IMG/VR virus record: IMGVR_UViG_2563366854_000002
Location: 1-25,932 of that record
Length of the DNA stretch: 25,932 bases
Origin: a virus
Taxonomy: Duplodnaviria; Heunggongvirae; Uroviricota; Caudoviricetes
Strand: one strand, 5' to 3'
Of the stretch, positions 9,927-25,932 are shown piece by piece. Within the stretch, counting starts at the first letter, position 1, and each line of letters opens with the position of its first letter. Under the pieces are notes generated by a model. It saw nothing but the letters and a program-made list of their open reading frames with translations. It did not search any database and was not told the DNA's origin. The translations under genes and the position numbers were made by a program.

Positions 9927-10927
9927 TATCGTTGCTCCATGCCGATTTGTTCAAGATTATATTCAACAACAATTTTGTCTGTCTTGTCGAAGTCAATTTT
10001 AAGAAAAAGTCTTTCATCCTCGCCTAAGAGCCAGTCTGTGCTGTATTTCTTTTTCGCTCTTTCAAAATGATGAATGGCATTTTCATTTGGGTGAATGTGA
10101 CAATGGCGTAATACGATTGGTTTACCTTCGGTTAATATCTGATAAGTTGATAACATATCAAAGAAGTAAACGAATTCGTCTACTGAATCCCCCGGTTGAT
10201 TGTAATAAACAACATATCCCTCAGGGTTTTTATCCCTGAGCCAACTGAAAGCCTCATGCTTTATTATAATGTATGGTGATGTTAATAATTCAATTGTTGC
10301 AGGTGTTGTCTGATTAATAGGGTGCTTTATTCTTGTTAGGGAAAGATCTGGATAATAATATGTGAACTTATCAGGTTGAGGAAGTTTGCCTGAACCAATT
10401 AACTTAGTTATGTCAGAAGATATGTTTATCAAATCTGATATTTTATAAGGGTCAAGCAAATGTAGTTTGATGTTTGGAGGGCAATTTATAGATGAGTGAT
10501 CTAATTTTTTTGTAATATTCTCATAGAAGTCTTTATCATATAAATTATCATGGTTATATAAGAATAATAACCCTCTTACGTTATAACCTAAAGAATCATC
10601 ATGAACATATTTCAATCGCCATTCTTCACTGACATTTGCACACTCGGTAGCTAAAGCAAGCGATGTTAAAGCTCCCTCGACTATTTTTTTCCCAATAGTA
10701 CCTTCTGCATAGCTTTTGAGGTCTGTGTTGAGATAGACCATTTCCTCCTCATATGGATCTATGTAGAAAAATACAACATCGCTTGGATGTGTTTTCTTGG
10801 AATGAGCCTCTTGGCAACAATCCCAATTCATGTCCGCTCTAGCGGCACGATCCCATTTGAACACTGAGAAAATATCATCAGAAATCTTACCCGCGACTCG
10901 TTGTATAGCCGAAGTCTCTCCACCCAT
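9926..10927 (-). CDS. Cargo operon gene 1: hypothetical protein (333 aa), no family recognised; has an R-x4-H spacing (RHCHIH) near the C-terminus
   Basis: ATG at 10925-10927 with AAGGAG 7 nt upstream; first gene of a three-gene minus-strand operon; AT-rich. Confidence 0.75.
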   Translation of the reverse strand: MGGETSAIQRVAGKISDDIFSVFKWDRAARADMNWDCCQEAHSKKTHPSDVVFFYIDPYEEEMVYLNTDLKSYAEGTIGKKIVEGALTSLALATECANVSEEWRLKYVHDDSLGYNVRGLLFLYNHDNLYDKDFYENITKKLDHSSINCPPNIKLHLLDPYKISDLINISSDITKLIGSGKLPQPDKFTYYYPDLSLTRIKHPINQTTPATIELLTSPYIIIKHEAFSWLRDKNPEGYVVYYNQPGDSVDEFVYFFDMLSTYQILTEGKPIVLRHCHIHPNENAIHHFERAKKKYSTDWLLGEDERLFLKIDFDKTDKIVVEYNLEQIGMEQR

Positions 10928-11104: not shown

Positions 11105-11145
11105 ATGTCATGCAGGTGCATGAAAACCACTACACAAAGCGGGCA

Positions 11146-11164
11146 GGCGTGGCGGGGATACGAG
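11146..11164. other. cos: Putative cos site (19-nt cohesive-end sequence GGCGTGGCGGGGATACGAG)
   Basis: Matches the P2 cohesive end as I recall it (GGCGAGGCGGGGAAAGCAC) at 15 of 19 positions, followed by GCGCGCGCTG as in the P2 left end; lies between the A-side region and portal Q, where cos is in P2-like prophages. Confidence 0.6.
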
Positions 11165-11232
11165 CGCGCGCTGTGCGTGGTTGTAAAAGGAAATTGTTTT
11201 CGGTATAACCACTTCCATTAGAAGGAGAATTT

Positions 11233-11478
11233 ATGAAAATTTTTGCAATAGTCATTACATGTATGCTGGCATCGATTGCAGGATTATGGCTTTATATGGA
11301 TCCTGGTTTTGATTCTATTGTTGCATTTTTGGCTGCAGTTAGCGCTTTAGCTGGATTACTTATCACTACAAAAAATAAATATAATTCTATGAGCCAATCA
11401 GTTGGTGATAATTCAACTGCTGTCCAGGCTAGAGGTGATATTAAAATTGATTGTATAAATACAGGTGATAAAAAATAA
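11233..11478 (+). CDS. Small membrane protein (81 aa, two predicted TM helices) with a C-terminal GDNSTAVQARGD motif
   Basis: ATG with AGGAG 7 nt upstream; hydrophobic segments IFAIVITCMLASIAGLWLY and IVAFLAAVSALAGLLITT; AT-rich. Confidence 0.7.
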   Translation: MKIFAIVITCMLASIAGLWLYMDPGFDSIVAFLAAVSALAGLLITTKNKYNSMSQSVGDNSTAVQARGDIKIDCINTGDKK

Positions 11479-11487
11479 GGAGGATAT

Positions 11488-12345
11488 ATGTTTAGTGATA
11501 AGCAAAAGCAACAAATAGGTAATAATTCGTATGCAATTCAAGCTGGAAATAATGTAAATGTTTCAGGGATGTCGTTTTCCGAGGTTAGAGAACTATTCAA
11601 CATTCTCTTCGAAAATCAGTTTCCAAAATTGAAAGATGTTGCTTATGCTGCAGCTCAAGAGAATGCAAAAGATTTTGAAGAGCGTGTCGTTTCGGATTTA
11701 ACAAAAAACGTTGATAGATTGATTATTGATAAATTTTGCGATCCGGACGTTCAGGCTACATTGACTGAGGCATTAAAGTCATCAGCCAGGAAGGGAAAGA
11801 AAGCTAATATGGATGTGCTTTCTCAGTTGTTAGTTGAACGAGTCTCCAATAACAATGACGATTTTAGAGATATAGTTTTAACGGAGGCAGTTACCGTCGT
11901 TCCCAAGTTAACACAGCAACAAATATCACTTATAACGATAGTTTTTCTTCTCAAGAATGTTGAGATCAAAGACCCTGTTAATGGTGTTCGATTGGATTTG
12001 TTGGAGCACAATTTTAGAAACTTTGAATCAATGTATACTAATGGGTTTAATTTGTCTCAAGCCCAGATATATCACATTCAATATGCAGGGGCTTGTTCAT
12101 GGAATACTTTTTTAGGGATGGATGTTGAAGACTATTTTATGAGTAAATATCCGACTGATATAAAAGATAAGAGTGCATATATTTCAAATCTTAAGTTAGT
12201 TGCCCCTCATGTGTCTGCATTTTTAGAAAAATTTTCAAAGAGCAACTATCAAGGAATTGAATTAACAAGTGTAGGGCAAGCAATTGCTCTGGCTGTTTTT
12301 TCAAGATACGTAGGAAGATTGGATTATAATATTTGGTTAAAGTAG
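11488..12345 (+). CDS. Hypothetical protein (285 aa), no family recognised; N-terminal GNNSYAIQAGNN motif resembles the C-terminus of the upstream small protein
   Basis: ATG with AAGGAGG 6 nt upstream; 9 nt downstream of the 81-aa gene; AT-rich. Confidence 0.75.
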   Translation: MFSDKQKQQIGNNSYAIQAGNNVNVSGMSFSEVRELFNILFENQFPKLKDVAYAAAQENAKDFEERVVSDLTKNVDRLIIDKFCDPDVQATLTEALKSSARKGKKANMDVLSQLLVERVSNNNDDFRDIVLTEAVTVVPKLTQQQISLITIVFLLKNVEIKDPVNGVRLDLLEHNFRNFESMYTNGFNLSQAQIYHIQYAGACSWNTFLGMDVEDYFMSKYPTDIKDKSAYISNLKLVAPHVSAFLEKFSKSNYQGIELTSVGQAIALAVFSRYVGRLDYNIWLK

Positions 12346-12370
12346 GGCATTATTTGCCCTACTTTATTAT
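12341..12370. terminator. Hairpin (agtagggc-attattt-gccctact) plus ttattat, a bidirectional terminator between the 285-aa gene and portal Q
   Basis: Read directly; overlaps the stop codon of the 285-aa gene and lies 3' of the convergent Q gene. Confidence 0.5.
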
Positions 12371-13398
12371 AATTCATATGGTTGGAAAGAAATTATTTCA
12401 TCACTCAACCATTCATTAATTTCTTTAATTCGCTTTTGCAGCGGTATCAATTCGTTACGGACAAACACCTTACTCGCCTTTTCCACATCCCCAAATCCCC
12501 CAACATTACTCGGCATAATCCCCATCATCTGCGGCGGAACGCGGTGTGCAGCCATCATGTCGTCTCGGCTCACGTTCTTAATGTTCAGAAACTCATCCTT
12601 TGCCGCTACCTCTGACAGCGGGATTATCTGAATCCCGTCCTTTTTGCCGTTGGGTGAATACATAAACAGGTTGCGGAAGTTGCCCGGTCCTTTAGCGCTT
12701 TTCATGGCCTGGCGGATGTTGTTCACGTCCTCCTGGTTCTGCGCGGCGTCGGTCATATACATGATGAACCCTGCATGACTGCCATTGATGTAGTATTTAC
12801 GCCGGAACAGCGTAGCGGACTCGTTCAGCAAGGCGGACGGAATGGCGGACAGATATTCCGGCAGGCCGTAAATTTCCTGGTTCAGGTCCGGCTCCATCAG
12901 GTGAAAGATACTGCCTTTAGTGAACTCGTAGGGCTGCGTGGTTAGACCGTATTGCACAAACCAGTAGGTGTCTAAGTCGATCCCGCGGCGGGTGTATTTC
13001 GCCAGCGATGGCTCCAGCGACAGAATGCCGCCGAGCCGGTTCGTTCGTTTCTCCAGATAAGCGTTACCAAACACCAAATAGTCCTGCACAAAGCGGCTGA
13101 ATGCCTGCTGGCTCAGTAATGGATGTGGGATAAATGTACTGGTCAGAATGTTGCGTTTGACGGCAATCGGTGAGCTGTGATGTACGGCGGCGCGATAGGT
13201 GCGAGCCAGCCCATCAAAACTGACCGGCGGTTCATACCATCTGTCCATCTGTACGCATTCCACATAGTCCAGCAGCTCGCGGCGGTCCAGTACCGGGATC
13301 GGATCGCCAAAGCTGAAAGCCTCGGCACTTACGCCTGTGTTTTTCGGTGCCGTAGCTTCTGTTGGCGTTGTGCTGGTTAAGGCTTCGGGTTCACTCAT
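12367..13398 (-). CDS. Q: Phage portal protein (P2 gpQ-like), 343 aa from ATG at 13396-13398
   Basis: Size and position next to the terminase large subunit; TGATG overlap with the P stop; the track start at 13401 is TTG. Confidence 0.9.
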   Translation of the reverse strand: MSEPEALTSTTPTEATAPKNTGVSAEAFSFGDPIPVLDRRELLDYVECVQMDRWYEPPVSFDGLARTYRAAVHHSSPIAVKRNILTSTFIPHPLLSQQAFSRFVQDYLVFGNAYLEKRTNRLGGILSLEPSLAKYTRRGIDLDTYWFVQYGLTTQPYEFTKGSIFHLMEPDLNQEIYGLPEYLSAIPSALLNESATLFRRKYYINGSHAGFIMYMTDAAQNQEDVNNIRQAMKSAKGPGNFRNLFMYSPNGKKDGIQIIPLSEVAAKDEFLNIKNVSRDDMMAAHRVPPQMMGIMPSNVGGFGDVEKASKVFVRNELIPLQKRIKEINEWLSDEIISFQPYEL

Positions 13399-15164
13399 CA
13401 AAAAATCTCCACAATATTGCTGGTATTGGCGGATTCGCCCTGCAGCGGTTCGTTAAACAGTGCGTGCATTGTTGCCCAGGCCAGATCGGCGTGGCTGGCT
13501 TCTTCGCTGCGGCTGGCTTCATAGGTCGGGCGGTTGCCGCTGGCGGTGGTTGCGCGCCGGATTGCCATAAATGACTGCGCTATGTCGGTGTGTCCGGCGT
13601 CAAACTCCAGACGGCGGTGACTGATAATGTCGTAGGCTTTGAGTACTAGGGCATTTTTAACATTGGGGTTGTAGACAAACTCCCGGACGGCAGGAAAGAA
13701 CGCTTTCACGTTCTCATAAACCCCGTGACCGACGCCTGTCGAGTCGATGCCGATATAGGTCACGTTGTACTGCTCGGTCAGTTTTTTGATTGCATCAGCC
13801 TGGGCGCGGAAGTCCATCCCGCGCCACTGGTGACGCTCAAGAATGCGAAACTTACCGCCTGGCACGGCTGGCGGTGCCACCACCACGCATCCGGCACTGT
13901 CGCCGTTCTGCGTACCTTTTGCCGGGTCATAACCGATCCACACTTCGCGCCAGCCAAACGGGCGCAGGGCCAGAGCATGAAAGTCGGTCCAGACTTCCCA
14001 ACTGTCCACCATGCACGCCTGCAGCTCGCTGAGCGGAAACACGGACGCGAGATCGTCCACAAACTCGCACATCAGCAGGTTCTGGTATTCGTCCGGGCTG
14101 TACTCCATGCGCAACTGGTCAAGGTCGAACAGGTTGCAGCCGCCGCGCACCGCATCTTCCACGGTGACTATCTGGCGGTATTGCCCGTCTGCGCACAGCA
14201 GGCCGGGGGCCAGATTGCTGTGGGACAGGTCGATGTCCACCTTATCGGCTTTGTTGCGCCCACGGTTGAACAGTGCACCGGACCAGAACGGATAAGCACT
14301 GTGTGTCAGGCTGGATGGCGTGGAAAAATAGGTTTGTCGCCATTTCTTGTGAATAGCCATACCAGAAGCCACTTTGCGCAGCTCCTGGAATTTCGGTATC
14401 CAGAAATATTCATCCAGATACAGATTGCCGTGGTAACTCTGGGCCGTGCGGGCATTGGTGCCGAGGAAATACAGTGTGGCCCCGTTGGGAAGCACCATCG
14501 GATCGCCTTTCAGCTCCACCTCCACTTCTTTGGCAAAGTCGATGATGTACTGTTTGAAAACGTGGGCCTGTGCCTTACTGGCAGAAAGGAAAATCTGGTT
14601 ACGTCTGGTTAGCAGGGCGTCAATCAGGGCTTCACGGGCAAAATAGAAGGTCGCGCCGATCTGGCGTGACTTCAGCAGGTTGCGGATGCGGTTGGTTTTT
14701 CCGGCTTCCCACCAGTGGCGCTGGTAGTTGAACATGGAGGAATGGAAGATTTCTTCTAGCTTCTCAATCTGTTCATCGGTGAAGACATTTTTTTCCGGCT
14801 GACGGCGCGGGCCTTTGTTGCGGTTGGCGACGTTAGGGTTTAAGTCGGCTTCGTTGCCGCCATTGTTAAACTTGCCGATCCGCGCGTGGCGCTCAGACTG
14901 GCGCGCCAGCAGGTCAATCTCTTTGAAATCTTTCCCTTCTTTGTGCTCCTTCATAATGAGCTGGCAGTAGCGTGCGGCGGTGGTGAGCTGCATCTGATCC
15001 AGCGGCCCATAGTCACCCCACTTGTCGCGTTTTTTCCAGCTGTGAACGGTTGCAACTTTCTCGCCCAGCATTTCAGCAATGCGGGCTACGCGGTATCCCT
15101 GAAAGTACAGCAGCATGGCCTGCCGACGGGGATCGAGATCTGCGGGTGTCAGTGTGGTGTTCAT
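13398..15164 (-). CDS. P: Terminase large (ATPase) subunit, P2 gpP-like (588 aa)
   Basis: Size, position between portal and scaffold genes, and P2 synteny. Confidence 0.9.
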   Translation of the reverse strand: MNTTLTPADLDPRRQAMLLYFQGYRVARIAEMLGEKVATVHSWKKRDKWGDYGPLDQMQLTTAARYCQLIMKEHKEGKDFKEIDLLARQSERHARIGKFNNGGNEADLNPNVANRNKGPRRQPEKNVFTDEQIEKLEEIFHSSMFNYQRHWWEAGKTNRIRNLLKSRQIGATFYFAREALIDALLTRRNQIFLSASKAQAHVFKQYIIDFAKEVEVELKGDPMVLPNGATLYFLGTNARTAQSYHGNLYLDEYFWIPKFQELRKVASGMAIHKKWRQTYFSTPSSLTHSAYPFWSGALFNRGRNKADKVDIDLSHSNLAPGLLCADGQYRQIVTVEDAVRGGCNLFDLDQLRMEYSPDEYQNLLMCEFVDDLASVFPLSELQACMVDSWEVWTDFHALALRPFGWREVWIGYDPAKGTQNGDSAGCVVVAPPAVPGGKFRILERHQWRGMDFRAQADAIKKLTEQYNVTYIGIDSTGVGHGVYENVKAFFPAVREFVYNPNVKNALVLKAYDIISHRRLEFDAGHTDIAQSFMAIRRATTASGNRPTYEASRSEEASHADLAWATMHALFNEPLQGESANTSNIVEIF

Positions 15165-15210
15165 GGCACAAACCTACAGCCTTGAATGAAGGCTTTCCCC
15201 GCCTGCGGTT

Positions 15211-15228
15211 TGTGTGGTTGTCGGTACA
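15211..15228. promoter_or_regulatory. TGT-N12-ACA dyad (TGTgtggttgtcggtACA), candidate Ogr-dependent late-promoter element in the P/O divergent region
   Basis: Read directly; P2 late promoters carry a TGT-N12-ACA dyad near -55; the site is ~88 nt upstream of the O start. Confidence 0.45.
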
Positions 15229-15306
15229 AATACCGCGCATTGTTTCACTGCCCCCATCACCGCAACCATAAGGCTCCAGTAAGTTTTTTCTAACGGAGCA
15301 CGGCTC

Positions 15307-16140
15307 ATGACAGTGAAAGCAAAGCGTTTTCGCATCGGGGTGGAAGGTGCCACCACCGACGGACGCGAAATCCAGCGTGAATGGCTGGAACAGATGGCAG
15401 CCAGCTACAACCCGGCGGTGTATACCGCGCTGATTAACCTTGAGCACATCAAGTCTTATCTGCCGGACAGCACCTTTAACCGCTACGGCAAGGTGACGGC
15501 GCTGTTTGCTGAAGAAATCACGGAAGGTCCGCTGGCAGGCAAGATGGCGCTGTATGCCGACGTTGAGCCAACGGAGTCCCTGGTGGAACTGGTGAAAAAA
15601 GGCCAGAAATTATTCACCTCTATGGAAGTCAGCCCGAAGTTCGCTGATACGGGCAAAGCCTACCTGGTCGGCCTGGCTGCCACTGATGACCCTGCCAGTC
15701 TGGGTACGGAAATGCTGACATTCAGCGCCAGTGCAGCCCATAACCCGCTGGCAAACCGCAAGCAGAATCCTGCCAATCTCTTTACCGCTGCAGAGGAAAC
15801 GGTGATCGAACTGGAAGAAATCCAGGACGACAAACCGTCCCTGTTTGCCCGCGTCACGGCGCTGTTTACCAAAAAAGAGCAGTCCGATGACGCCCGGTTC
15901 TCTGATGTGCATAAGGCCGTGGAGCTGGTCGCCACTGAGCAGCAGAACCTGAGCGCACGCACCGAAAAATCCCTGTCTGAGCAGGAAGAACGCCTGTCTG
16001 AGCTGGAGGCTGCCCTGCAGGCACAGCAAACCGCCTTTAACGAACTGGTGGACAAGCTGAGTCATGAAGACAGCCGCCAGGACTACCGCCAGCGTGCAAC
16101 AGGCGGTAACGCCCCCGCTGACACTCTGACCAATTGCTGA
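15307..16140 (+). CDS. O: Capsid scaffolding protein (P2 gpO-like, 277 aa)
   Basis: Position before the major capsid gene; coiled-coil-like acidic C-terminal half. Confidence 0.9.
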   Translation: MTVKAKRFRIGVEGATTDGREIQREWLEQMAASYNPAVYTALINLEHIKSYLPDSTFNRYGKVTALFAEEITEGPLAGKMALYADVEPTESLVELVKKGQKLFTSMEVSPKFADTGKAYLVGLAATDDPASLGTEMLTFSASAAHNPLANRKQNPANLFTAAEETVIELEEIQDDKPSLFARVTALFTKKEQSDDARFSDVHKAVELVATEQQNLSARTEKSLSEQEERLSELEAALQAQQTAFNELVDKLSHEDSRQDYRQRATGGNAPADTLTNC

Positions 16141-16156
16141 TGGAGCACAAAACCCG

Positions 16157-17215
16157 ATGAAGAAGAATACCCGCTTTGCTTTTAACGCTTACCTGCAGCA
16201 GCTGGCGCGTCTGAACGGTGTGGCAGTTGAAGAACTGTCCAGCAAGTTCACCGTGGAGCCGTCTGTGCAGCAGACGCTGGAAGACCAGATCCAGCAGTCC
16301 GCCGCTTTCCTGACGCTGATTAACGTCACGCCAGTGACTGAGCAGTCCGGTCAGCTGCTGGGGCTGGGTGTTGGCAGCACCATTGCCGGAACCACTGACA
16401 CCACCGCGAAAGAGCGTGAACCTGTCGATCCGACGCTGATGGTCGATGTGGAATACAAATGCGAACAGACCAACTTTGACACGGTACTGACCTACGCGAA
16501 GCTGGACCTGTGGGCGAAGTTTCAGGATTTCCAGGTGCGTATCCGTGACGCCATCGTGAAACGTCAGGCACTGGACCGCATCATGATCGGCTTTAACGGT
16601 GTGAAGCGTGCGAAAACCTCCAACCGTAGCGAAAACCCGCTGCTGCAGGATGTGAACAAAGGCTGGCTGCAGAAAATCCGTGAGGATGCACCGGATCACG
16701 TCATGGGCAGCACCACCACGGGCGGTGAAACCACACCGGGCGCGGTGAAAGTCGGGAAAGGTGGCGAATATACCAACCTGGACGCCGTGGTGATGGATGC
16801 CGTCAATGAGCTTATCGACGTGGTCTACCAGGACGATGACGATCTGGTGGTGATTTGCGGTCGTGAGCTGCTATCTGACAAGTATTTCCCGCTGATCAAC
16901 AAAGAGCAGGAAAACAGTGAAAAACTGGCTGCCGATATGATCATCAGTCAGAAACGCATGGGAGGCCTGCAGGCCGTGCGTGCGCCGTTCTTCCCGCCGA
17001 ATGCGCTGCTGATCACCCGTCTGGATAACCTGTCCATCTACTGGCAGGAAGACACCCGCCGCCGTTCAGTTATCGACAACCCGAAACGTGACCGGATTGA
17101 AAACTTTGAATCCGTTAACGAAGCCTATGTGGTTGAGGACTACCGCTGCGCCGCACTGGTGGAAAACATCCAGATTGGCGATTTCAGCGCCGCCGCAGCA
17201 GAAACCGGAGAGTAA
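16157..17215 (+). CDS. N: Major capsid protein (P2 gpN-like, 352 aa)
   Basis: N-terminus MKKNTRFAFNAYLQQLARLNGV and overall pattern match the P2 gpN family as I recall it. Confidence 0.9.
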   Translation: MKKNTRFAFNAYLQQLARLNGVAVEELSSKFTVEPSVQQTLEDQIQQSAAFLTLINVTPVTEQSGQLLGLGVGSTIAGTTDTTAKEREPVDPTLMVDVEYKCEQTNFDTVLTYAKLDLWAKFQDFQVRIRDAIVKRQALDRIMIGFNGVKRAKTSNRSENPLLQDVNKGWLQKIREDAPDHVMGSTTTGGETTPGAVKVGKGGEYTNLDAVVMDAVNELIDVVYQDDDDLVVICGRELLSDKYFPLINKEQENSEKLAADMIISQKRMGGLQAVRAPFFPPNALLITRLDNLSIYWQEDTRRRSVIDNPKRDRIENFESVNEAYVVEDYRCAALVENIQIGDFSAAAAETGE

Positions 17216-17218
17216 TCC

Positions 17219-17869
17219 ATGAGCCTGAGTCCCGCACGGCAGCATCGCCTGCGCGTTCAGGCTGAACAGGCCGCCCGTGAGGGCGGCAGCGTTCGCCACG
17301 CGTCGGGCTATGACCTGATGCTGCTGCAACTGGCGGAAGACCGCCGCCGTCTCAAGGGCGTTCAGTCCACGGTCAAAAAAGCGGAAATCAAGGTGGAGCT
17401 GCTGCCGAAGTACGCCGCCTGGGCGGAGGGTGTCCTGGCTGCCGGAGGCGCTCAACAGGATGACGTGCTGATGTACGTGATGCTGTGGCGCATTGATGCC
17501 GGAGATTATGCCGGGGCGCTGGAGATAGGGCGTCATGCCCTGCGTCATGGCTGGGTGATGCCGCTGGGTAACCGCAACGTGCAGACCGTGCTGGCAGAGG
17601 AAATGGCAGACGCAGCCCAGAGTGCAATGCTTGCCGCCACCGGGTTTGATGCCGATCTGTTGCTGCAGACGCTGGAGCTGACAGACGGTCTGGATATGCC
17701 GGACCAGTCACGGGCGCGTCTGCATAAAGCGATTGGCGCTGTCCTGAGTGAAAGCAATCCGGCTTCCGCCCTTAATCATCTCAACCATGCGTTACAGCTC
17801 GATCCCCGCTGTGGCGTGAAAAAAGACAAACAGCAGCTGGAGCGCAGACTGCGCAATGACAGCCGCTGA
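17219..17869 (+). CDS. M: Terminase endonuclease (small) subunit, P2 gpM-like (216 aa)
   Basis: Position after N and P2 synteny. Confidence 0.85.
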   Translation: MSLSPARQHRLRVQAEQAAREGGSVRHASGYDLMLLQLAEDRRRLKGVQSTVKKAEIKVELLPKYAAWAEGVLAAGGAQQDDVLMYVMLWRIDAGDYAGALEIGRHALRHGWVMPLGNRNVQTVLAEEMADAAQSAMLAATGFDADLLLQTLELTDGLDMPDQSRARLHKAIGAVLSESNPASALNHLNHALQLDPRCGVKKDKQQLERRLRNDSR

Positions 17870-17964
17870 CAGAACGTGCCCCCGCGCACGGGCGGCACGG
17901 GGTGGCGAAAGGCACTACCACATCAAAACCCCGTCCACCGCCCTCTATTTCAGGAGAAAGCAGC

Positions 17965-18429
17965 ATGAAGTTTGTTGCGCCAGAACAGGCACCGGAACAG
18001 GCGGAAATCATCAGAAATACGCCGTTCTGGCCTGATGTGGACCTGTCGGAGTTTCGCAGTGTCATGCGCACTGACGGCACAGTGACGCAGCCGCGTTTAA
18101 AGCAGGTTGCGCTGTCGGCAATTTCGGAGGTCAACGCAGAGCTGTATGAGTTTCGCAGACGCCAGCAGATGCTGGGGTATGCCTCGCTGGCAGAAGTCCC
18201 GGCGGAACAACTGGACGGCAAAAGCGAGCGCATTCAGCACTATTTCAACGCGGTTTACTGCTGGGCACGCGCCATGCTCAACGAACGTTACCAGGACTAT
18301 GACGCCACGGCATCCGGTGCGAAGCGAGGCGAGGAACTGGCGGAAGCAAGCGGTGATTTATGGCGTGACGCCCGCTGGGCCATCAGCCGGGTGCAGGATG
18401 CGCCGCACTGCACAGTGGAGCTTATCTGA
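17965..18429 (+). CDS. L: Head completion/stabilisation protein (P2 gpL-like, 154 aa from ATG at 17965)
   Basis: AGGAG 8 nt upstream of the ATG at 17965; the longer track ORF begins in the intergenic region. Confidence 0.85.
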   Translation: MKFVAPEQAPEQAEIIRNTPFWPDVDLSEFRSVMRTDGTVTQPRLKQVALSAISEVNAELYEFRRRQQMLGYASLAEVPAEQLDGKSERIQHYFNAVYCWARAMLNERYQDYDATASGAKRGEELAEASGDLWRDARWAISRVQDAPHCTVELI

Positions 18430-18632
18430 TGAAAGTGCGTGCGCATCAGTATGACACGGTGGACGCACTTTGCTGGCGTCATTACGGGCGCACGCAGGGT
18501 GTCACGGAGCAGGTACTGAAGGCAAATCCGGGGCTTGCCGAATACGGCCCCTTTTTACCTCACGGGCTGCAGGTGGAGCTGCCGGACATTCCGACAACCA
18601 CCACCGTGCAGACCGTCCAGCTATGGGACTGA
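18429..18632 (+). CDS. X: Tail protein X (P2 gpX-like, 67 aa)
   Basis: Translation MKVRAHQYDTVDALCWRHYGRTQGVTEQVLKANPGLAEYGPFLPHGLQVELPD fits the gpX family. Confidence 0.85.
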   Translation: MKVRAHQYDTVDALCWRHYGRTQGVTEQVLKANPGLAEYGPFLPHGLQVELPDIPTTTTVQTVQLWD

Positions 18633-18635
18633 ATT

Positions 18636-18851
18636 ATGACGCTTGAGCGAATCAGCGCCTTTATCACGTATTGCATCGCCGTCGTGCTGGCCTGGCTGGG
18701 CGATTTGTCCATCAAGGATGCCTCAACGCTGGGCGGCCTGATGATTGGTGTGCTGATGCTGGCTATCAACTGGTACTACAAACACAAAGCCTACCAGCTT
18801 CTGCGCGACGGGCAGATCTCGCGGGAGGATTATGAATCCATCAATCGTTAA
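18636..18851 (+). CDS. Holin (71 aa, membrane)
   Basis: Small protein with hydrophobic helices and a charged C-terminus, immediately upstream of the endolysin. Confidence 0.75.
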   Translation: MTLERISAFITYCIAVVLAWLGDLSIKDASTLGGLMIGVLMLAINWYYKHKAYQLLRDGQISREDYESINR

Positions 18852-19347
18852 ACGTTGCCTTGTCGGGACCGTGCTGGCTATTGCTGCCACTCTGCCGGGT
18901 TTTCAGCAGCTTCACACCTCCGTAGAGGGGCTGAAACTGATTGCCGATTACGAAGGCTGTCGTCTGCAGCCGTATCAGTGCAGCGCGGGTGTCTGGACCG
19001 ACGGCATTGGTAATACATCGGGCGTCATTCCCGGCAAAACAATCACGGAACGACAGGCAGCAGAAGGGCTGATCTCCAACGTGCTGCGTGTGGAGCGGGC
19101 ACTGGAAAGGTGTGTAAAGCAACAGCCGCCACAGAAGGTGTATGACGCTACGGTGTCGTTTGCCTTCAACGTGGGGACGGGCAATGCCTGTAGTTCCACG
19201 CTGGTGAAATTGCTCAATCAGCGGCGCTGGGCGGATGCGTGCCGACAGTTGCCGCGCTGGGTTTATGTGAAAGGTGTTTTTAATCAGGGGCTGGATAACC
19301 GCCGTGCGCGGGAGATGGCCTGGTGCCTTAAAGGAGCTGGACTATGA
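18832..19347 (+). CDS. Endolysin, lysozyme type with an N-terminal signal-anchor-release (SAR)-like segment (171 aa)
   Basis: Hydrophobic N-terminus CLVGTVLAIAATLPG, then E-x8-C/D-x5-T spacing (YEGCRLQPYQCSAGVWTDGIGNT) typical of T4-type lysozymes. Confidence 0.8.
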   Translation: MNPSIVKRCLVGTVLAIAATLPGFQQLHTSVEGLKLIADYEGCRLQPYQCSAGVWTDGIGNTSGVIPGKTITERQAAEGLISNVLRVERALERCVKQQPPQKVYDATVSFAFNVGTGNACSSTLVKLLNQRRWADACRQLPRWVYVKGVFNQGLDNRRAREMAWCLKGAGL

Positions 19348-19772
19348 CACGTGCGCTGGCGGTAGTGGCGGCGCTGGCACTCGTTGCGCTGGGCTGGCAG
19401 TCGTGGTGGCTTAACAGCGCCAGCCACACCATCGAAACGCAGCGCGCGGCGCTGAAAAGTAAAGCGCACGAACTAACGAAGAAAAATAGTCAGCTGATCA
19501 GTCTGTCCATTCTGGCTGAAACCAACAATCGGGAGCAGGCGCGGCTCTACGCCGAAGCAGAACAGACCAGTGCGCTGCTGAGACAACGACAACACCGGAT
19601 CGAGGAACTGAAACGTGAGAACGAGGATTTACGCCGCTGGGCTGATACTCCTTTGCCTGCTGACATTATCCGGCTGCGGGAACGTCCGACACTCACCGGA
19701 GGTGCAGCTTACCGTCAGTGGTTGTCCGCGGGTGACGCCGTGTCGGCTGGATCAGGCAACGCCGCGCACTAA
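19344..19772 (+). CDS. lysB: Inner-membrane spanin (LysB/Rz-like, 142 aa)
   Basis: N-terminal TM segment plus coiled-coil-like remainder; AAGGAG upstream; follows the endolysin. Confidence 0.7.
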   Translation: MTRALAVVAALALVALGWQSWWLNSASHTIETQRAALKSKAHELTKKNSQLISLSILAETNNREQARLYAEAEQTSALLRQRQHRIEELKRENEDLRRWADTPLPADIIRLRERPTLTGGAAYRQWLSAGDAVSAGSGNAAH

Positions 19773-19905
19773 CGGTGATCTGAACGCGTTGCTGGATGAA
19801 ACGGAGGGCGCCTGGGCGGTCTGTGCAGACAAAGTGGACATGATTATTGCGTGTCAGGAGCGAAACAGTGAACAAACCACAATCCCTGCGCCACGCCCTC
19901 AATAA
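19615..19905 (+). CDS. lysC: Outer-membrane lipoprotein spanin (LysC/Rz1-like, 96 aa) in the +1 frame overlapping lysB
   Basis: GTG start with GAGGAA upstream; lipobox LTLSGC; Pro-rich mature part; embedded/overlapping arrangement typical of spanin pairs. Confidence 0.65.
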   Translation: MRTRIYAAGLILLCLLTLSGCGNVRHSPEVQLTVSGCPRVTPCRLDQATPRTNGDLNALLDETEGAWAVCADKVDMIIACQERNSEQTTIPAPRPQ

Positions 19906-20299
19906 AGCGGTGCCTTATGTCCGCAATAACCCGGACAAACTGCATCTGTTTGTGGATAACGGTTCGCTGGTTGCTACGGGGGCCAGCTCCATGTCATGGG
20001 AGTACCGTTACACCCTGAACGTGGTGATTGAGGATTTCAGCGGCGACCAGAATCTGCTGATGGCCCCGGTTTTGCTGTGGCTGCGGGATAACCAGCCCGA
20101 TGCCATCAATAACCCGGCGTTACGGGAAAAACTATTTACCTTTGAGGTGGATATTCTGCGCAACGATGTCTGTGATATCAGCCTTAACCTGCAACTGACG
20201 GAACGTGTGCTGGTCAGCACTGACGGCAGTGTGTCGAGCGTTGAAGCGGTAGCAGAACCCGATGAACCTGAAGAAATGTGGACGGTGAAACGTGGCTGA
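19868..20299 (+). CDS. R: Tail completion protein R (P2 gpR-like, 144 aa from GTG at 19868)
   Basis: AGGAG 7 nt upstream of the GTG; translation ...KPQSLRHALNKAVPYVRNNPDKLHLFVDNGSL... matches the gpR pattern. Confidence 0.85.
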   Translation: MNKPQSLRHALNKAVPYVRNNPDKLHLFVDNGSLVATGASSMSWEYRYTLNVVIEDFSGDQNLLMAPVLLWLRDNQPDAINNPALREKLFTFEVDILRNDVCDISLNLQLTERVLVSTDGSVSSVEAVAEPDEPEEMWTVKRG

Positions 20300-20738
20300 A
20301 CTGCAGAAGGTGGACGACTGGCTTAGTGCCTTACTGGCGAATCTGGAACCAGTCGCAAGAAGCCGCATGATGCGCCAGCTGGCGCAGGAACTGCGCCGGA
20401 CACAGCAGCAGAATATCAGGATGCAGCGCAATCCAGATGGCAGCAGTTATGAACCGCGCAAGGTCACGGCGCGCAGTAAAAAAGGCCGCATCAAACGTCA
20501 GATGTTTGCAAAGCTGCGCACCACCAAATACCTGAAAACTGCCGCCAGCGCCGATTCTGCCAGCGTGCAGTTTGAAGGTAAGGTGCAGCGCATTGCCCGC
20601 GTTCACCATTATGGCCTGCGCGATCGCGTCAGCCGCAAAGGACCGGAAGTGCGTTACGCAGAGCGTCGTTTGTTGGGTCTTAATGGTGAGTCTTACGTTC
20701 TAACTCTTGATATATTGAATAGATTCCTTCTGTCTTGA
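20292..20738 (+). CDS. S: Tail completion protein S (P2 gpS-like, 148 aa) with a replaced C-terminal ~18 aa encoded by AT-rich inserted DNA
   Basis: Conserved gpS body (..IARVHHYGLRDRVSRKGPEVRYAERRLLGL) then an unrelated tail NGESYVLTLDILNRFLLS where the GC content drops. Confidence 0.8.
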   Translation: MAELQKVDDWLSALLANLEPVARSRMMRQLAQELRRTQQQNIRMQRNPDGSSYEPRKVTARSKKGRIKRQMFAKLRTTKYLKTAASADSASVQFEGKVQRIARVHHYGLRDRVSRKGPEVRYAERRLLGLNGESYVLTLDILNRFLLS

Positions 20739-21486
20739 ATTCACCATATGCCCAATGAATTGCATTTTTTTGTTCAGTCAGAATATATTTCCTAACTTTT
20801 TTAGAATAGTGAATGGTCAGTATAAAACCCAAAGAAATCCATAATAGAATAAATATGGTTGTTGGGGCAAAGGAATAGATAAAGAATTTGTCTTTAACGA
20901 AATTCTTGACTTCTTCATCAATGTAAGCATTCCCTTCATCAGTGGTTAGTAGTTTACAAAGAATTTCTTTATGTTCGATAGTTAATGATTTGTACTTCTC
21001 TGTACTGGCAGAGGATGACTCTTCGCAATCATCCTTTGATATTTCCCAATCAGGAGTGGTTAATATTGTAGCTGCAGTCGCCAGTTTTTTTGACATATAA
21101 AATGATTCACCGGATTTTATCCAATAAAGCAATGTGCTATTTGGTGGGGTTCTAATGGCTTGGATGAAAACTGGACCAAAAATATAAATTGCACACAAAA
21201 AAAGAAGTGAAAAGAGAACCGTGATTGATTTTTCAGCCCATGTGATAGTAGGCAGCCTTTTTAATGATATTCGTATAAGAAAAAAATTCAATATAAACGC
21301 AGGTATTCCTGATTTTTTCAAAATTACATCATGAGATTTTCTATATTTGAATAGTGCTCTTATAACTATCGTCACCAAAGTTATAACAGCTCCAATAATG
21401 GAAATCCATGCGGCAAGTGCCGCTGCCGGGGTGTTTAAAAATTCAGCATTAAATATATTAGAACTTATTGGATTCATAACACTCAT
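20680..21486 (-). CDS. Polytopic membrane protein (268 aa), unknown function, in an AT-rich insert between S and V
   Basis: ATG at 21484-21486 with AGGTGGA upstream; several hydrophobic helices; 19 G+C in the 60 nt of line 21181; opposite strand to the flanking late genes. Confidence 0.65.
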   Translation of the reverse strand: MSVMNPISSNIFNAEFLNTPAAALAAWISIIGAVITLVTIVIRALFKYRKSHDVILKKSGIPAFILNFFLIRISLKRLPTITWAEKSITVLFSLLFLCAIYIFGPVFIQAIRTPPNSTLLYWIKSGESFYMSKKLATAATILTTPDWEISKDDCEESSSASTEKYKSLTIEHKEILCKLLTTDEGNAYIDEEVKNFVKDKFFIYSFAPTTIFILLWISLGFILTIHYSKKVRKYILTEQKNAIHWAYGEFKTEGIYSIYQELERKTHH

Positions 21487-21589
21487 TTATCCACCTATTG
21501 GTTGTTTTTTATCCTTTTATCAATTTGTACCATCGATACCACAATTTGCAAGAAGTTATAAACAAGTTTTCAGCTGTCATCATATATCT

Positions 21590-22768
21590 ATGAACGCACA
21601 ACTAACCGAAATCATGCGCCTTATCACCAATCTGATCCGCATAGGTGTAGTCACCGAAGTGGACCGGGAAAACTGGCTTTGTCGGGTGAAAACGGGCGAC
21701 CTTGAAACCAACTGGATTAACTGGCTGACGCTGCGCGCGGGTATCACCACTGTGCTGGACAACCGCCTGATGGGGCTTACGCTGACGGATAACCGGGGCT
21801 TTGAAGCGGACCAGCTTGATCTGGAGCTGGACGACGCTGACGGAAAAATCGTGCTGCCGCGCCGTGGTGCGGTCATTACGCTGGCGCTGGGCTGGAAGGG
21901 GCAGCCGCTTTTCCCGAAAGGGGCATTCACGGTGGACGAGATTGAACACACTGGCGCACCGGACCGCCTGACTATCCGGGCGCGAAGCGCTGATTTTCGG
22001 GAAACGCTGAATACCCGTCGTGAAAAATCGTGGCACAAGACCACGGTCGGGGAAGTGGTGAAGGAAATAGCTGCGCGTCACAAACTGAAGATGGCACTGG
22101 GTAAAGACCTGTCGGATAAACCCGTGGAGCATATAGACCAGACTAATGAGAGTGACGGCAGTTTTTTGATGCGGCTGGCGCGCCAGTACGGTGCCATTGC
22201 ATCGGTGAAAAATGGCAATCTGTTATTCATCCGGCAGGGACAGGGCAAAAGCGCCAGCGGTAAACCACTGCCGGTGATCACTATCATACGTAAGGACGGC
22301 GACAGTCACCGCTTTACCCTGGCAGATCGCGGAGCTTACACGGGGGTAATTGCCAGCTGGTTGCATACCCGCGAACCCGCGAAGAAAGAAAGCACTACGG
22401 TGAAGCGTAAGCGCAGGACTAAGAAGCAGAAGAAAGAGCCGGAAGCGAAGCAGGGCGATTACCTGGTGGGGACGGATGAAAACGTGCTGGTACTTAATCG
22501 CACTTATGCCAACCGGAGCAACGCCGAACGAGCGGCAAAAATGCAGTGGGAACGCCTGCAACGCGGCGTTGCGTCATTCTCGCTACAACTGGCGGAAGGG
22601 CGGGCAGATCTCTACACGGAAATGCCTGTGAAGGTCAGTGGTTTTAAACAGCCGATAGATGATGCGGAATGGACTATTACCACCCTGACGCATACTGTCA
22701 GCCCGGATAACGGTTTTACGACCAGTCTGGAGCTTGAAGTGAAGATTGATGATTTCGAAATGGAATGA
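21590..22768 (+). CDS. Chimeric in-frame ORF: N-terminal ~48 aa of baseplate spike V fused to late control/tail protein D (392 aa)
   Basis: The first ~48 aa (MNAQLTEIMRLITNLIRIGVVTEVDRENWLCRVKTGDLETNWINWLTLRAG) match the gpV N-terminus pattern; the rest (LTLTDNRGFEADQLDLELDD...FTTSLELEVKIDDFEME) matches gpD; no W, J, I, H, G, F, E, T or U genes are present. Confidence 0.8.
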   Translation: MNAQLTEIMRLITNLIRIGVVTEVDRENWLCRVKTGDLETNWINWLTLRAGITTVLDNRLMGLTLTDNRGFEADQLDLELDDADGKIVLPRRGAVITLALGWKGQPLFPKGAFTVDEIEHTGAPDRLTIRARSADFRETLNTRREKSWHKTTVGEVVKEIAARHKLKMALGKDLSDKPVEHIDQTNESDGSFLMRLARQYGAIASVKNGNLLFIRQGQGKSASGKPLPVITIIRKDGDSHRFTLADRGAYTGVIASWLHTREPAKKESTTVKRKRRTKKQKKEPEAKQGDYLVGTDENVLVLNRTYANRSNAERAAKMQWERLQRGVASFSLQLAEGRADLYTEMPVKVSGFKQPIDDAEWTITTLTHTVSPDNGFTTSLELEVKIDDFEME

Positions 22769-22858
22769 TTCTTCGCAATGGAGAACTTTTAAGTTTTCAA
22801 AATGGAATAATGCGGTATCATTATTGTGAATTTAGCAAAAATGGGGAGAACTCGAAAA

Positions 22859-23077
22859 ATGATGATTTGCCCACTGTGTGGAAGTGCCGCCCATACTCGC
22901 AGCAGTTTTCAGGTATCTTCATTGACCAAAGAGCGTTACAACCAGTGCCAGAACATTAACTGCAGCCATACTTTTGTTACCCATGAAACTTTTGTTCGTT
23001 CGATTGCAACGCCAAAAGAGTCAAATCCGGTTCAGCCGCATCCAATGAAATCAGGACAGGTGGCGCTCTCTCTTTGA
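22859..23077 (+). CDS. ogr: Ogr-type zinc-finger late-gene activator (72 aa)
   Basis: CPLCGSAAH...CQNINCSHTF four-Cys motif and length match P2 Ogr / K-12 OgrK; ATG at 22859. Confidence 0.85.
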   Translation: MMICPLCGSAAHTRSSFQVSSLTKERYNQCQNINCSHTFVTHETFVRSIATPKESNPVQPHPMKSGQVALSL

Positions 23078-23151
23078 CGCTGCCGCCAATTTGTCGCCAT
23101 CATTAAAAAACAGTGCTTCTAACATCATGATTTTGAATGGCATAAATTTCA

Positions 23152-23199
23152 GGCAACAAAAAACCCATCAACCTTGAACCGAAATGGCGGGGTTGATGG
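23152..23199 (-). terminator. Probable Rho-independent terminator of ybjL (10-bp stem cccatcaacc/ggttgatggg, T-run on the minus strand)
   Basis: Inverted repeat read directly; AAAAAA at 23155-23160 on the plus strand gives the U-tract for the minus-strand transcript. Confidence 0.6.
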
Positions 23200-23312
23200 G
23201 CTCCACAAAATGGGGACATCAAAGAAAAGCAGTGGCACTAATTAAGACTGATGCCCTGCGGAAAAGTTCTGCGGTTGTGCAAAAAAATTTCATTTTCAGG
23301 GCAACTTCAGTT

Positions 23313-24998
23313 TTATCCTAATCCTGGCCATACCATGACGATGATTGTCCCTGCCAGCGTCAGCAGGACGTTGGCGATTGCATAGGTGCCCGCATAGCCC
23401 AGCGCCGGGATGTTACTGCGAGCTGTATCACTGATGATCTCCATTGCCGGCGCGCAGGTACGTGCGCCCATCATTGCGCCGAACAACAGCGCGCGGTTCA
23501 TTCGCAATACATAAGCACCGAACAAGAAACAGATAACCACGGGCACCAGACTGACAATCAATCCGGCAATCAACATCTGACCGCCAATCGCGCCCAGGCC
23601 GTTATTAATACCGCTACCGGCGCTCAGACCAACGCCTGCCATAAACACCATCAAGCCGAACTCTTTCACCATGCTTAATGCACCCTGCGGAATGTAACCG
23701 AAGGTCGGGTGGTTAGCACGCATAAAGCCCAGCATAATTCCGGCGAATAACAACCCGGCAGCGTTCCCCATGCCGAAACTGAATGTGCTGAACTGGAAGG
23801 TGATCATCCCGATCATCAGCCCAATAACAAAGAAGGCGCAGAATGCCAGCAGGTCAGTGACCTGGCTGTGAATCGAGATAAAGCCGATGCGATCGGCGAT
23901 GGTTTTTACGCGGCGGGCATCGCCGCTGACTTGTAAAACGTCACCTTTGTTAAGCACGACGTTGTCATCTATCGGCATCTCAATCTGGCTACGAATGACG
24001 CGGTTAAGGAAGCAACCGTGATCGGTCAACTTCAGTTGTGCGAGACGTTTACCTACAGCGTTATGGTTTTTAACGACCACTTCTTCAGTGACGATACGCA
24101 TGTCGAGAAGGTCACGATCGAAAACTTCTTTACCGTTACGGAAGCTGGGATCGAGTCGGGCATGGGCGTCGGGATAGCCTACCAACGCTATTTCATCGCC
24201 CATTTGTAGCACGGCATCACCGTCTGGATTTGCCAGAATCCCGTTACGTCGAATACGTTCAATGTAGCAGCCGGTTTGTCGATAAATACCCAGTTCACGC
24301 AGATTTTTGCCGTCGGTCCAGGCCACCAGTTCCGGGCCGACGCGATAGGCGCGGATCACCGGTAAATAAACCTTACGGTTGGCATCAGTGTCCAGGCCAC
24401 GTTCGCGGGCGATTTGCTGGGCGCTGGTCTGTAAGTCCTGATGCTGCAATTTCGGCAAGTAACGCGCACCAACAATCAAACTCACCAGACCGATTAAATA
24501 GGTTAAGGCATACCCGAGGCTCAGATTATCCAGTGCCAGTGAGAGCTGCCTGCTTTCCATGCCGGAATGACGCAGTGTATCGCCAGCACCGACCAGAACC
24601 GGTGTCGACGTCATAGAGCCTGCTAACATACCGGCCGTCAGGCCAATATCCCAGCCAAACAGCTTACCTAACCCTAAGGCGATCACCAGCGCACTGCCAA
24701 CCATCACCAGTGCTAACATTAGGTAATTTTTCCCATCGCGAAAAAAAATGGAAAAAAAGTTCGGTCCGGCTTCGACCCCGACGCAGAAAATAAACAGCAT
24801 AAAGCCAAGATTAAGCGCATCGGTGTTAATGCTGAAATGTTGTTGGCCTAATAACAGCGATACGACTAAAACGCCAATGGAATTACCCAGTTGGATCGAA
24901 CCAAGTCGTAACTTTCCGAGACATAGCCCAAGCGCGAGGACCACAAATAATAACAGAATGTAATTCCCATTTAACAATTCGGCGACGTTTATATTCAC
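23313..24998 (-). CDS. ybjL: Putative transport protein YbjL (AAE-family membrane transporter with TrkA-C-like domains, 561 aa)
   Basis: Translation ([30 protein letters not shown]..., 561 aa) matches E. coli YbjL as I recall it; flanked by ybjM and grxA as in E. coli. Confidence 0.95.
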
Positions 24999-25267
24999 GG
25001 AGGCTAACTTCTTGTTTACTAGTAAGCTGTTGAAAGAAATGGTAATTTACGATAATGTTTTTTACCAGAATTCAGGGCGCAGATTCATTCAGCGCACCTA
25101 AACGATAGTAAAGCAACAATATATTTTACTAGTGTAATCACATTAGGTATCAACGGCTATATGAATTGCGTTGGCCTATATTAGCATGGAATGCGAAGCG
25201 GCTTTATCTTACTGAACGCCACACTGGCGAAAAATGTGTTCGATAGACGCAGTGTCAGGAGGAACGA

Positions 25268-25645
25268 GTGAAACATAAACAACGTTGGGCGGGGGCAATC
25301 TGCTGTTTTGTCCTCTTCATTGTGGTGTGCCTTTTTCTGGCGACGCACATGAAAGGCGCTTTTCGGGCTGCCGGGCATCCTGAAATCGGCTTGCTATTTT
25401 TCATTCTTCCTGGAGCAGTCGCCAGCTTCTTTTCACAGCGTAGAGAAGTCCTGAAACCTCTGTTTGGCGCAATGCTGGCGGCACCCTGTTCGATGCTCAT
25501 TATGCGGCTGTTTTTTTCACCGACGCGCTCATTCTGGCAAGAGCTGGCATGGTTACTAAGCGCGGTGTTCTGGTGTGCGCTGGGGGCACTGTGTTTCTTA
25601 TTTATCAGTAGTTTGTTTAAACCACAGCACAGAAAAAATCAGTAA
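25268..25645 (+). CDS. ybjM: Inner membrane protein YbjM (125 aa)
   Basis: GTG start with AGGAGG 5 nt upstream; 125-aa hydrophobic protein in the expected position between ybjL and grxA. Confidence 0.9.
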   Translation: MKHKQRWAGAICCFVLFIVVCLFLATHMKGAFRAAGHPEIGLLFFILPGAVASFFSQRREVLKPLFGAMLAAPCSMLIMRLFFSPTRSFWQELAWLLSAVFWCALGALCFLFISSLFKPQHRKNQ

Positions 25646-25668
25646 AGCCCTCAACGCGAGGGCTTGTC
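25645..25668. terminator. Hairpin aagccctc-aacgc-gagggctt between the convergent ybjM and grxA genes
   Basis: Read directly. Confidence 0.5.
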
Positions 25669-25674
25669 AGACGA

Positions 25675-25932
25675 TCAGGCGTCCAGATTTTCTTTCACCC
25701 ATGCAGCAAAATCGGTATAGCCGCCGATATGTTGCTGATCGACAAAAATCTGCGGCACGGTTTCTACGGGTTTACCTGCCTTTTGTTGTAGATCTTCTTT
25801 AGTGATCCCTTCCGCACGAATATCTACATACTGATACTGAAAATCATCGCGTTCATTGCTCAATTTCTCAGCCAGATCTTTTGCACGCACACAGTAAGGG
25901 CAACCCGAACGACCAAAAATAACGGTTTGCAT
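25675..25932 (-). CDS. grxA: Glutaredoxin 1 (85 aa); start codon is the last three bases of the window
   Basis: CPYC active-site motif (GRSGCPYCVRAKDLA) and full-length match to GrxA. Confidence 0.95.
   Translation of the reverse strand: MQTVIFGRSGCPYCVRAKDLAEKLSNERDDFQYQYVDIRAEGITKEDLQQKAGKPVETVPQIFVDQQHIGGYTDFAAWVKENLDA

Follow-up and report, generated by a model that had tools for sequence, protein, structure and literature searches.

The stretch of DNA analyzed here, hereafter the window, is the 25,932-nucleotide IMG/VR record IMGVR_UViG_2563366854_000002, and it corresponds to a segment of an Escherichia coli chromosome in which a P2/186-like prophage is followed by the host genes ybjL, ybjM and grxA, as identified from its list of open reading frames (ORFs) and from the annotation of strain HSP425. 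The subject of this report is an ORF near the right end of that prophage in which the beginning of the tail gene V is fused in frame to most of the tail gene D, together with the loss of the tail genes that lie between V and D in intact relatives. The defective prophage (Peduoviridae) spans positions 1-23168 on the plus strand, as delimited by the RefSeq annotation of the near-identical HSP425 region (NZ_CM136999.1), from which the window differs at 4 of 24,633 aligned positions. In HSP425 the element is inserted between rcdA and ybjL, with an intact integrase gene just to the left of the region covered here; the window itself begins at the int stop codon, and attL lies about 88 bp farther left, outside it. 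The sequence AACAAAAAACCCAT at 23155-23168 (plus strand) is the likely att core at attR, being a 14-nt direct repeat with a second copy downstream of rcdA at attL. From attL to attR the prophage measures 23,256 bp, as compared to about 35 kb for intact relatives at rcdA/ybjL. The ORFs, Pfam matches, HSP425 annotation and P2 record together reveal a P2-like late-gene order, with Q-P divergent from O-N-M-L-X-Y-K-lysB/C-R-S, followed by V...D-ogr beside the att site, from which the V-to-D interior is gone. With the tail module incomplete, the element is, on its gene content, a defective derivative of a P2-like (Peduoviridae) prophage rather than a complete member of the group.

An In-Frame V-D Chimera at the Site of the Tail Genes

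The fused V'::'D ORF (21590-22768, plus strand) opens with an ATG at 21590, closes at 22768 and encodes 392 residues, namely gpV 1-51 joined to gpD 26-366, as established from the ORF list, Pfam and alignments with the P2 proteins. Residues 3-51 of the chimera align to residues 5-53 of P2 gpV (45% identity, E=1e-12), and residues 52-392 to residues 26-382 of P2 gpD (55% identity, E=8e-142). A preliminary description of this DNA, made from the letters alone, had proposed a gpV-like N terminus fused in frame to gpD and had called for alignment with gpV and gpD references; these alignments, together with the identity to intact alleles reported below, bear the proposal out and locate the junction. 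It falls at 21742/21743, inside the interval predicted for it (21730-21760), while the estimate of about 48 V-derived residues gives way to a count of 51.

The two parts of the chimera are unequally preserved. The Pfam model PF05954 (Phage_GPD) scores 93.3 bits against a cut-off of 30.1 and matches from model position 28 of 305, so that the gpD hub domain is recognized by its Pfam score, yet residues 1-25 are missing; this missing N terminus aligns with the first ordered strand and residues of the R2-pyocin hub (6u5h_C). PF04717 (Phage_base_V) reaches 21 bits, under its cut-off of 23.8, because just 42 of the 75 model positions (1-42) remain. The 51 residues left of the ~192 of gpV comprise neither the full OB-fold nor the C-terminal spike. 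In RefSeq the fusion carries the label 'phage late control D family protein'.

Upstream of the chimera, a TGT-N12-ACA dyad at 21526-21543 (plus strand) is the presumed Ogr/activator site of the late promoter P_V. Its center lies 55.5 nt before the ATG at 21590. P2 has the same spacing: in its record the P_V activator site occupies 10239-10266, and transcription of V begins on the start codon itself, at 10308. By analogy with P2 the V'::'D messenger RNA would be leaderless, and the conserved spacing suggests that the chimera is probably made whenever Ogr is active. Lacking most of the V OB-fold and spike as well as the first beta-strand of the D hub, the product would most likely be a functionless by-product.

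The Junction and Its Parental Alleles

The V' segment (V nt 1-154; 21590-21743, plus strand) is 100% identical to intact V alleles, with identity to the V gene of E. coli 2018-11-3CC (locus L007) extending through 21743, and the 'D segment (D nt 75 to the stop codon; 21742-22768, plus strand) is 100% identical to the intact D of strains YZ_2_2 and Z1322HEC0001. Comparison with the V and D parental sequences places the deletion junction at 21742-21743 (plus strand), where the two segments overlap in a 2-nt microhomology, TA: V reads ..GCGGGTA|ATGC and D reads ..AGGGATA|TCACC, and their fusion reads ..GCGGGTA|TCACC, with TA common to both and zero filler bases. As a precise join on a short shared sequence without any insert, this has the makeup of a microhomology-mediated (illegitimate) deletion.

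The identity to intact parents continues well beyond the ORF on both sides. At least 10 complete E. coli genomes carry an intact V locus that matches positions 21440-21743 with 100% identity, and this identity takes in the upstream DUF6216 cargo gene; one of them, 2018-11-3CC, bears a complete prophage at the same rcdA-ybjL site. To the right, positions 21742-25932, from TATCACC via ogr and attR into 2.6 kb of host DNA, are 100% identical to YZ_2_2, whose D gene keeps a normal 5' end; for Z1322HEC0001 the 100% identity is limited to the D'-ogr part. Relative to 2018-11-3CC, 11,775 bp are missing, comprising the 3' part of V, W, J, I, H, the invertible tail-fiber and assembly genes with their invertase, FI, FII, E, T (the tape measure), U and 25 codons of D. 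None of W, J, I, H, G, FI, FII, E, T and U is found within the window, which thus holds no complete tail module. The deletion of the whole V-to-D tail block, as originally read from the sequence, is hence confirmed against an intact prophage at the same locus. The accompanying assumption of a strict P2 order holds for the loss of the tail genes but not for Z/fun, in place of which this lineage carries an invertible tail-fiber segment and invertase.

Distribution in One E. coli Clone

In a search of 5,426 complete E. coli genomes, HSP425 alone spans the junction: 1,187 genomes match a junction-spanning query somewhere, and in all but HSP425 the match ends at the junction. The exact 392-residue protein is on record in about 100 contigs and is indexed in 203 blocks of a public assembly collection. 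In the 24 contigs that we read (from NCBI, ENA and Logan assemblies) the R-S-DUF6216-fusion-ogr-ybjL neighborhood recurs, and every carrier has the identical junction. An assembly mis-join, which the preliminary description had named as a possible undoing of its reading, is excluded by this recurrence of protein and neighborhood in independent assemblies from NCBI, ENA and Logan as well as one complete chromosome, and by the indexing of the exact protein in 203 blocks.

Retained Phage Functions and Cargo

The late genes Q and P (minus strand) and O, N, M, L, X, Y, K, lysB, lysC, R and S (plus strand) are retained at 12367-20738, as supported by the ORF list, the HSP425 annotation, comparison with L007, the portal translation, and Pfam matches for R and S. 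CI, CII, fil, dam, A, Q, P, O, N, M, L, X, holin, endolysin, lysB/C, R, S and ogr are all open and of parental length in the window, and the late-gene activator ogr is intact at 22859-23077 (plus strand; PF04606, Ogr_Delta, 77.6 bits, and annotation). The retention of R, S, the head and lysis genes and ogr, which had been noticed from the sequence, is therefore correct, and the further statement that capsid, packaging and lysis genes and accessory cargo are what remains after the loss of the tail block is demonstrated by comparison to intact relatives at the same locus. The exact 19-mer of P2 cos is absent from the window, and a diverged cos-like sequence, GGCGTGGCGGGGATACGAG (11146-11164, plus strand), was recovered by alignment of the P2 cos region to positions 11114-11181; a packaging site thus appears to be retained. 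The element's own capsid, portal, terminase and packaging functions, represented by open Q, P, O, N, M and L genes and the cos-like site, are simply genes of the parental phage.

Three AT-rich cargo loci are also kept. The first, a DUF6216 membrane-protein gene (20680-21486, minus strand; PF19723; 33% GC), fills the slot between S and V that holds orf30 in P2 and overlaps the 3' end of S by 59 nt; the same gene adjoins an intact V in L007 and in the prophage of BL21 (E. coli B). The second is a three-gene operon (8177-10927, minus strand; 36% GC) with full-length matches to PADLOC Hp1, Hp2 and Hp3 (E down to 1e-248), for which a Pfam search gave no domain; on these matches it is a candidate defense system in the A-to-cos hotspot. 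The third lies between the cos-like site and the portal gene (11233-12345; 34% GC) and consists of an 81-residue ORF and a 285-residue protein of the LPO_1073/Vpar_1526 family, both without a PADLOC or Pfam match in the libraries used.

Further Lesions in Carriers and Sister Prophages

Carriers of the fusion have undergone additional inactivation. The portal gene of HSP425 carries a nonsense mutation, Q97* (A for G at window position 13110), and that of the window is intact, which indicates that the window derives from a sister genome of the same clone. A second deletion of 1,335 bp (window 18394-19728), found in 5 of the 24 contigs read, removes X, holin, endolysin and part, indeed most, of lysB; it is joined across a CGGGTG repeat, and the region lost is the still-lethal lysis cassette. 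One metagenome contig with the fusion has foreign DNA to the left of R. Sister prophages at ybjL bear other deletions, namely a Q'::'D fusion in G4/9 and a Q'::T' fusion in EC812A1 (Q being the portal gene), and an invertase'::T' fusion in YZ_2_2, and the BL21 prophage has three (CII'::A', O'::K' and invertase'::'D). In BL21 and YZ_2_2 alike, the deletion that affects the invertase gene begins about 240-250 nt into it.

As a separate observation on strain Z1322HEC0001, its two 'plasmids' L005 (NZ_CP148584.1) and NZ_CP148585.1 contain the chromosomal ybjL-potG region and, between them, an intact prophage that is cut in two within the invertible fiber segment, and these records are probably mislabeled chromosome fragments.

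Probably a Recently Crippled Prophage

We interpret the element, with a probability of roughly 0.88, as a P2/186-like prophage disabled by a single clean deletion and undergoing ordinary decay, as opposed to an evolved capsid-only satellite. A single event of illegitimate recombination in the integrated prophage would have brought V nt 154 and D nt 75 together at the shared TA, with loss of the ~11.8 kb holding all baseplate, fiber, sheath, tube, tape-measure and tail-completion genes lying between V and D. The in-frame outcome would follow from the position of TA steps in these genes, which mostly fall at codon boundaries (NNT|ANN); joins from TA to TA between genes on one strand would therefore tend to keep the frame. 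The event would have placed a chimera of 392 residues, V(1-51)::D(26-366), under the control of the Ogr-dependent promoter P_V and left the remainder intact (integrase, CI immunity, replication, cos, head, terminase, lysis, ogr and the three cargo loci), amounting to a one-lesion defective prophage, which upon induction would at best yield DNA-filled tail-less heads and cell lysis. Vertical inheritance within one E. coli clone, with more lesions accumulating, would complete the sequence of events. A clonal lesion, flanks 100% identical to intact phages and decaying carriers thus combine into the picture of a recently crippled prophage heading to domestication. Between the two options raised initially, a decaying prophage or a capsid-only element, it is the former that is favored by the restriction of the lesion to one clone, the decay of its carriers and the different deletions of sister prophages.

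Several observations sit less comfortably with this interpretation. The copy in the window is itself without a second lesion, and lost selection on head and lysis genes is seen only in its relatives. In addition, the D endpoint is common, within 7 nt, to at least four independent deletions, and the break site in D is therefore probably not random. Finally, in a search for a relocated tail block HSP425 was not among the best 40 of 1,135 records matching the block, a search in which a divergent P2-like helper could be missed.

Recurrent Endpoints in D and an Apparent Bias toward TA

The sharing of endpoints extends beyond the prophages named above. A D query of the protein collection returned dozens of in-frame X'::D' chimeras, among which at least five independent deletions cross inside the 7 nt GGATATC at D codons 25|26; their left partners, each checked at the DNA level, are V, antisense Q, N, T and FII, and the crossovers lie at positions 21742-21743 of the window, 6003-6004 of L003, ~4616-4620 of L062, 2242-2245 of L063 and 4867-4871 of L064. 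Deletions also end repeatedly at D codons 41|42, 115|116 (at least 11 partners) and 134|135, and recurrent left-hand sites are found in O (..GGCGGT|AAC), FII (..GGCTCT|ATC), V (..GGCGTT|ACC), K (..CTGGAT|AAC) and CII (..GCGGTA|TCT). The G4/9 deletion, which reaches the same D nucleotides as the window (..CCAGGTA|TCACC), and an N'::'D contig (GCA_049263665) break D at the same GGATA|TCACC position. Descent of the G4/9 Q'::'D fusion from a junction of the window type is unlikely, as identity to the window is 93% in the G4/9 early region and 82% in Q. The left part of the N'::'D contig is 99.98% identical to the window and the contig retains the A of GGGATATC, from which it follows that it arose independently, from an intact D in the same prophage lineage.

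We surveyed the junctions in loci L003, L062-L065 and L067 and in proteins P0016-P0174 and P0199-P0281, a sample that consists of in-frame fusions among top-ranked matches, with most junctions mapped on reference alleles as opposed to true parents and a rough de-replication by lineage. In this sample TA lies inside the microhomology in about 21 of 32-38 mapped junctions, often as the entire microhomology, versus 2% under a null that enumerates every in-frame pair sharing 2 nt or more of microhomology. The same signature is borne by a non-D junction (a CII::Q fragment) and by several FI junctions. Two remnants contain two junctions each, flanking a 120-nt Q island (L065 3206-3325) and a 257-nt V island (L067 2988-3244), suggesting multi-break rejoining or serial deletions.

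These data lend some weight to a different account of the deletion, in which a TA-specific break-and-join process (for instance, paired blunt or 2-nt-staggered TpA cuts by a nuclease or recombinase, followed by end joining) would take the place of generic microhomology recombination. The five left partners at D 25|26 and the other recurrent sites on either side, the excess of TA over the null, and the CII::Q, FI and island-containing remnants all speak for such a process; against it, 7 of the 15 DNA-verified junctions are not TA, there is no consensus around T|A beyond codon structure, and the visible sample is biased by its restriction to in-frame fusions in top matches mapped mostly on reference alleles. 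Moreover, no more D 25|26 junctions came to light in viral, metagenome and species-representative collections, scans for a non-A|TATCACC junction pattern in IMG/VR, JGI metagenomes and GTDB representatives returning none, with all 49 IMG/VR matches intact. On balance we regard a TA-specific origin of the window's deletion as possible, though clearly the less probable account. Slightly less probable again is the general form of the proposal, whereby a TA-specific process, either enzyme-driven or due to TpA fragility, would repeatedly delete P2-like late genes at D 20|21, 25|26, 41|42, 115|116 and 134|135, at one FI site and at recurrent CII, O, K, V and FII sites. Because TpA steps coincide with codon boundaries (11 of the 14 TA steps in D nt 1-540), a process of this kind would preferentially give in-frame fusions.

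None of the candidate causes that we examined fits the pattern. Hairpins or other secondary structure at the D site are rejected, as its folding is no better than that of shuffled sequences (z = 0.23 and -0.49). EcoRV (GATATC) or another palindromic restriction site is ruled out by the other hot spots and left-hand sites, which have no common 6-mer. Self-targeting by CRISPR I-E, suggested by an AGG protospacer adjacent motif before GATATCACC, is dismissed since endpoints at -8, -3 and codon 21 would spare the target and the second hot spot has no such motif. The phage gpA (an HUH nickase) is an equally poor match, the nick at the P2 origin being G|G. The tail-fiber invertase is discounted on the basis of its cix-like site, TTCTCCCAAACC-AA-CGTTTAAGAAAA, which has an AA and not a TA center, and no long inverted repeats were found when this route was checked. 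Rpn nucleases were rejected as the cutter for want of sequence specificity, which is not reported for them (PMC5350276). A literature search for reports of this deletion, or of illegitimate recombination with a bias to TA, gave no relevant result. Overall, the pattern of shared endpoints and TA junctions stands as a robust side observation.

Two further sequence features were noted in this context. The cix/pix-like crossover site TTCTCCCAAACC-AA-CGTTTAAGAAAA is located at L007 25477-25502, just upstream of the tail-fiber invertase gene. Furthermore, the 11-nt direct repeat GAAAAATCGTG occurs twice in the D gene of L004 (at nt ~170 and ~355), in different frames, and protein P0135 resembles the product of a deletion from one copy to the other.

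Alternative Readings of the Element

That the window might represent a functional mobile element of the type of the capsid-forming PICIs (cf-PICIs), making its own heads and borrowing tails from a P2-like helper, is suggested by its intact head, terminase, lysis, int, replication and ogr genes and its cos-like site, and tail-only-stealing elements do exist in the form of cf-PICIs, as described in a preprint (10.1101/2025.02.11.637232). A related tail block is found in 21% of complete E. coli genomes, which could in principle provide helpers. We nevertheless consider this reading improbable. The superficial likeness lies in the presence of own capsid and packaging genes and the absence of tail genes, but cf-PICIs are an old, diverse family with a regulatory architecture of its own, in contrast to a clone-specific deletion derivative that has leftover tail-completion genes and ongoing decay. 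Tail absence is here no conserved trait of a diverse family, as it is confined to 1 of 5,426 complete genomes; the flanks of the lesion are 100% identical to intact phages and the tail-less lineage is undiversified. Among carriers the portal has been inactivated (Q97*) or the lysis genes deleted, the opposite of what purifying selection on a capsid-only lifestyle would bring about, and the tail-completion genes R, S and X, useless in such an element, are still kept. The genome, at 23.3 kb, is just about two thirds of parental length. In HSP425 a sequence search of the complete genome gave a single matching locus, with no second P2-like V or D locus detected. Nothing supports a borrowed-tail strategy as an evolved trait.

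It is more improbable again that the V'::'D chimera was itself selected, as a truncated hub acting as a dominant-negative decoy that would poison the baseplate of an incoming P2-like phage when expressed from P_V via that phage's Ogr. Such a role would accord with the in-frame fusion, with the preserved activator dyad of P_V and start codon, and with the many independent in-frame X'::D' fusions that keep D from residue 26, 42 or 116. However, a protein search detects in-frame fusions only and TA steps at codon boundaries favor them, the 'D part of G4/9 sits after antisense portal sequence without a late promoter, and nucleotide-identical endpoints point to mechanism rather than selection. Lastly, that the fusion is an assembly mis-join, or that its V-like N terminus is native to D in this lineage, as the preliminary description had itself allowed for, can be set aside with near certainty, as V genes that run on normally match the first 154 nt of the ORF at 100% identity and the same D allele occurs elsewhere intact, with a normal 5' end.

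Relation to Known Defective Prophages

The interpretation as a prophage in decay makes the element a fresh case of a well-known kind, the defective P2-like prophage, whose nearest described relative is the prophage of E. coli B. The E. coli B/BL21(DE3) prophage resides at the same rcdA-ybjL site, belongs to the same lineage (99.3% identity over the V and DUF6216 region) and shows the same mode of decay through partial-gene fusions, and its invertase'::'D fusion also removes FI to U and the 5' end of D, similar to the tail loss described here. The two differ in that three deletions kill replication, head and tail in BL21, whereas a single one removes tail genes only in the window; the BL21 junctions are furthermore not at TA, and the BL21 endpoint in D is far downstream. 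G4/9, EC812A1, YZ_2_2 and GCA_049263665 share site and family with the window and differ from it in the left endpoints and extents of their deletions. The cryptic P2 remnant of E. coli K-12 consists of ogrK and yegZ (a C-terminal gpD fragment) beside a P2 attachment site; it keeps only a D fragment and ogr, where the window keeps about 23 kb of an otherwise intact phage.

Incomplete P2-like prophages that keep near-identical defense genes are described in a recent article (Nucleic Acids Res 2026, PMC13586616). Those elements and the window are alike in being defective and carrying cargo, the window having three AT-rich loci that include the full-length Hp1-Hp3 match; neither its junction nor the recurrent TA endpoints are reported in the passages of the article that were consulted.

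Implications for Prophage Domestication

The deletion described here corresponds to a textbook first step of prophage domestication, in which infectivity is lost and immunity, defense cargo and a lethal lysis cassette are kept, and its relatives exhibit the later steps, in which portal or lysis functions disappear as well. Its wider value lies in the repeated use, by independent deletions in unrelated strains, of a few nucleotides of D and of a handful of other TpA steps. If true, the TA bias would mean that prophage decay in E. coli is partly sequence-directed, which would affect the dating of defective prophages, the annotation of 'late control D family protein' fusions and views of which DNA-breaking activity hits prophages, and a TA-specific break-and-join process would constitute a directed way of domesticating prophages in Enterobacteriaceae that has not been described to date.

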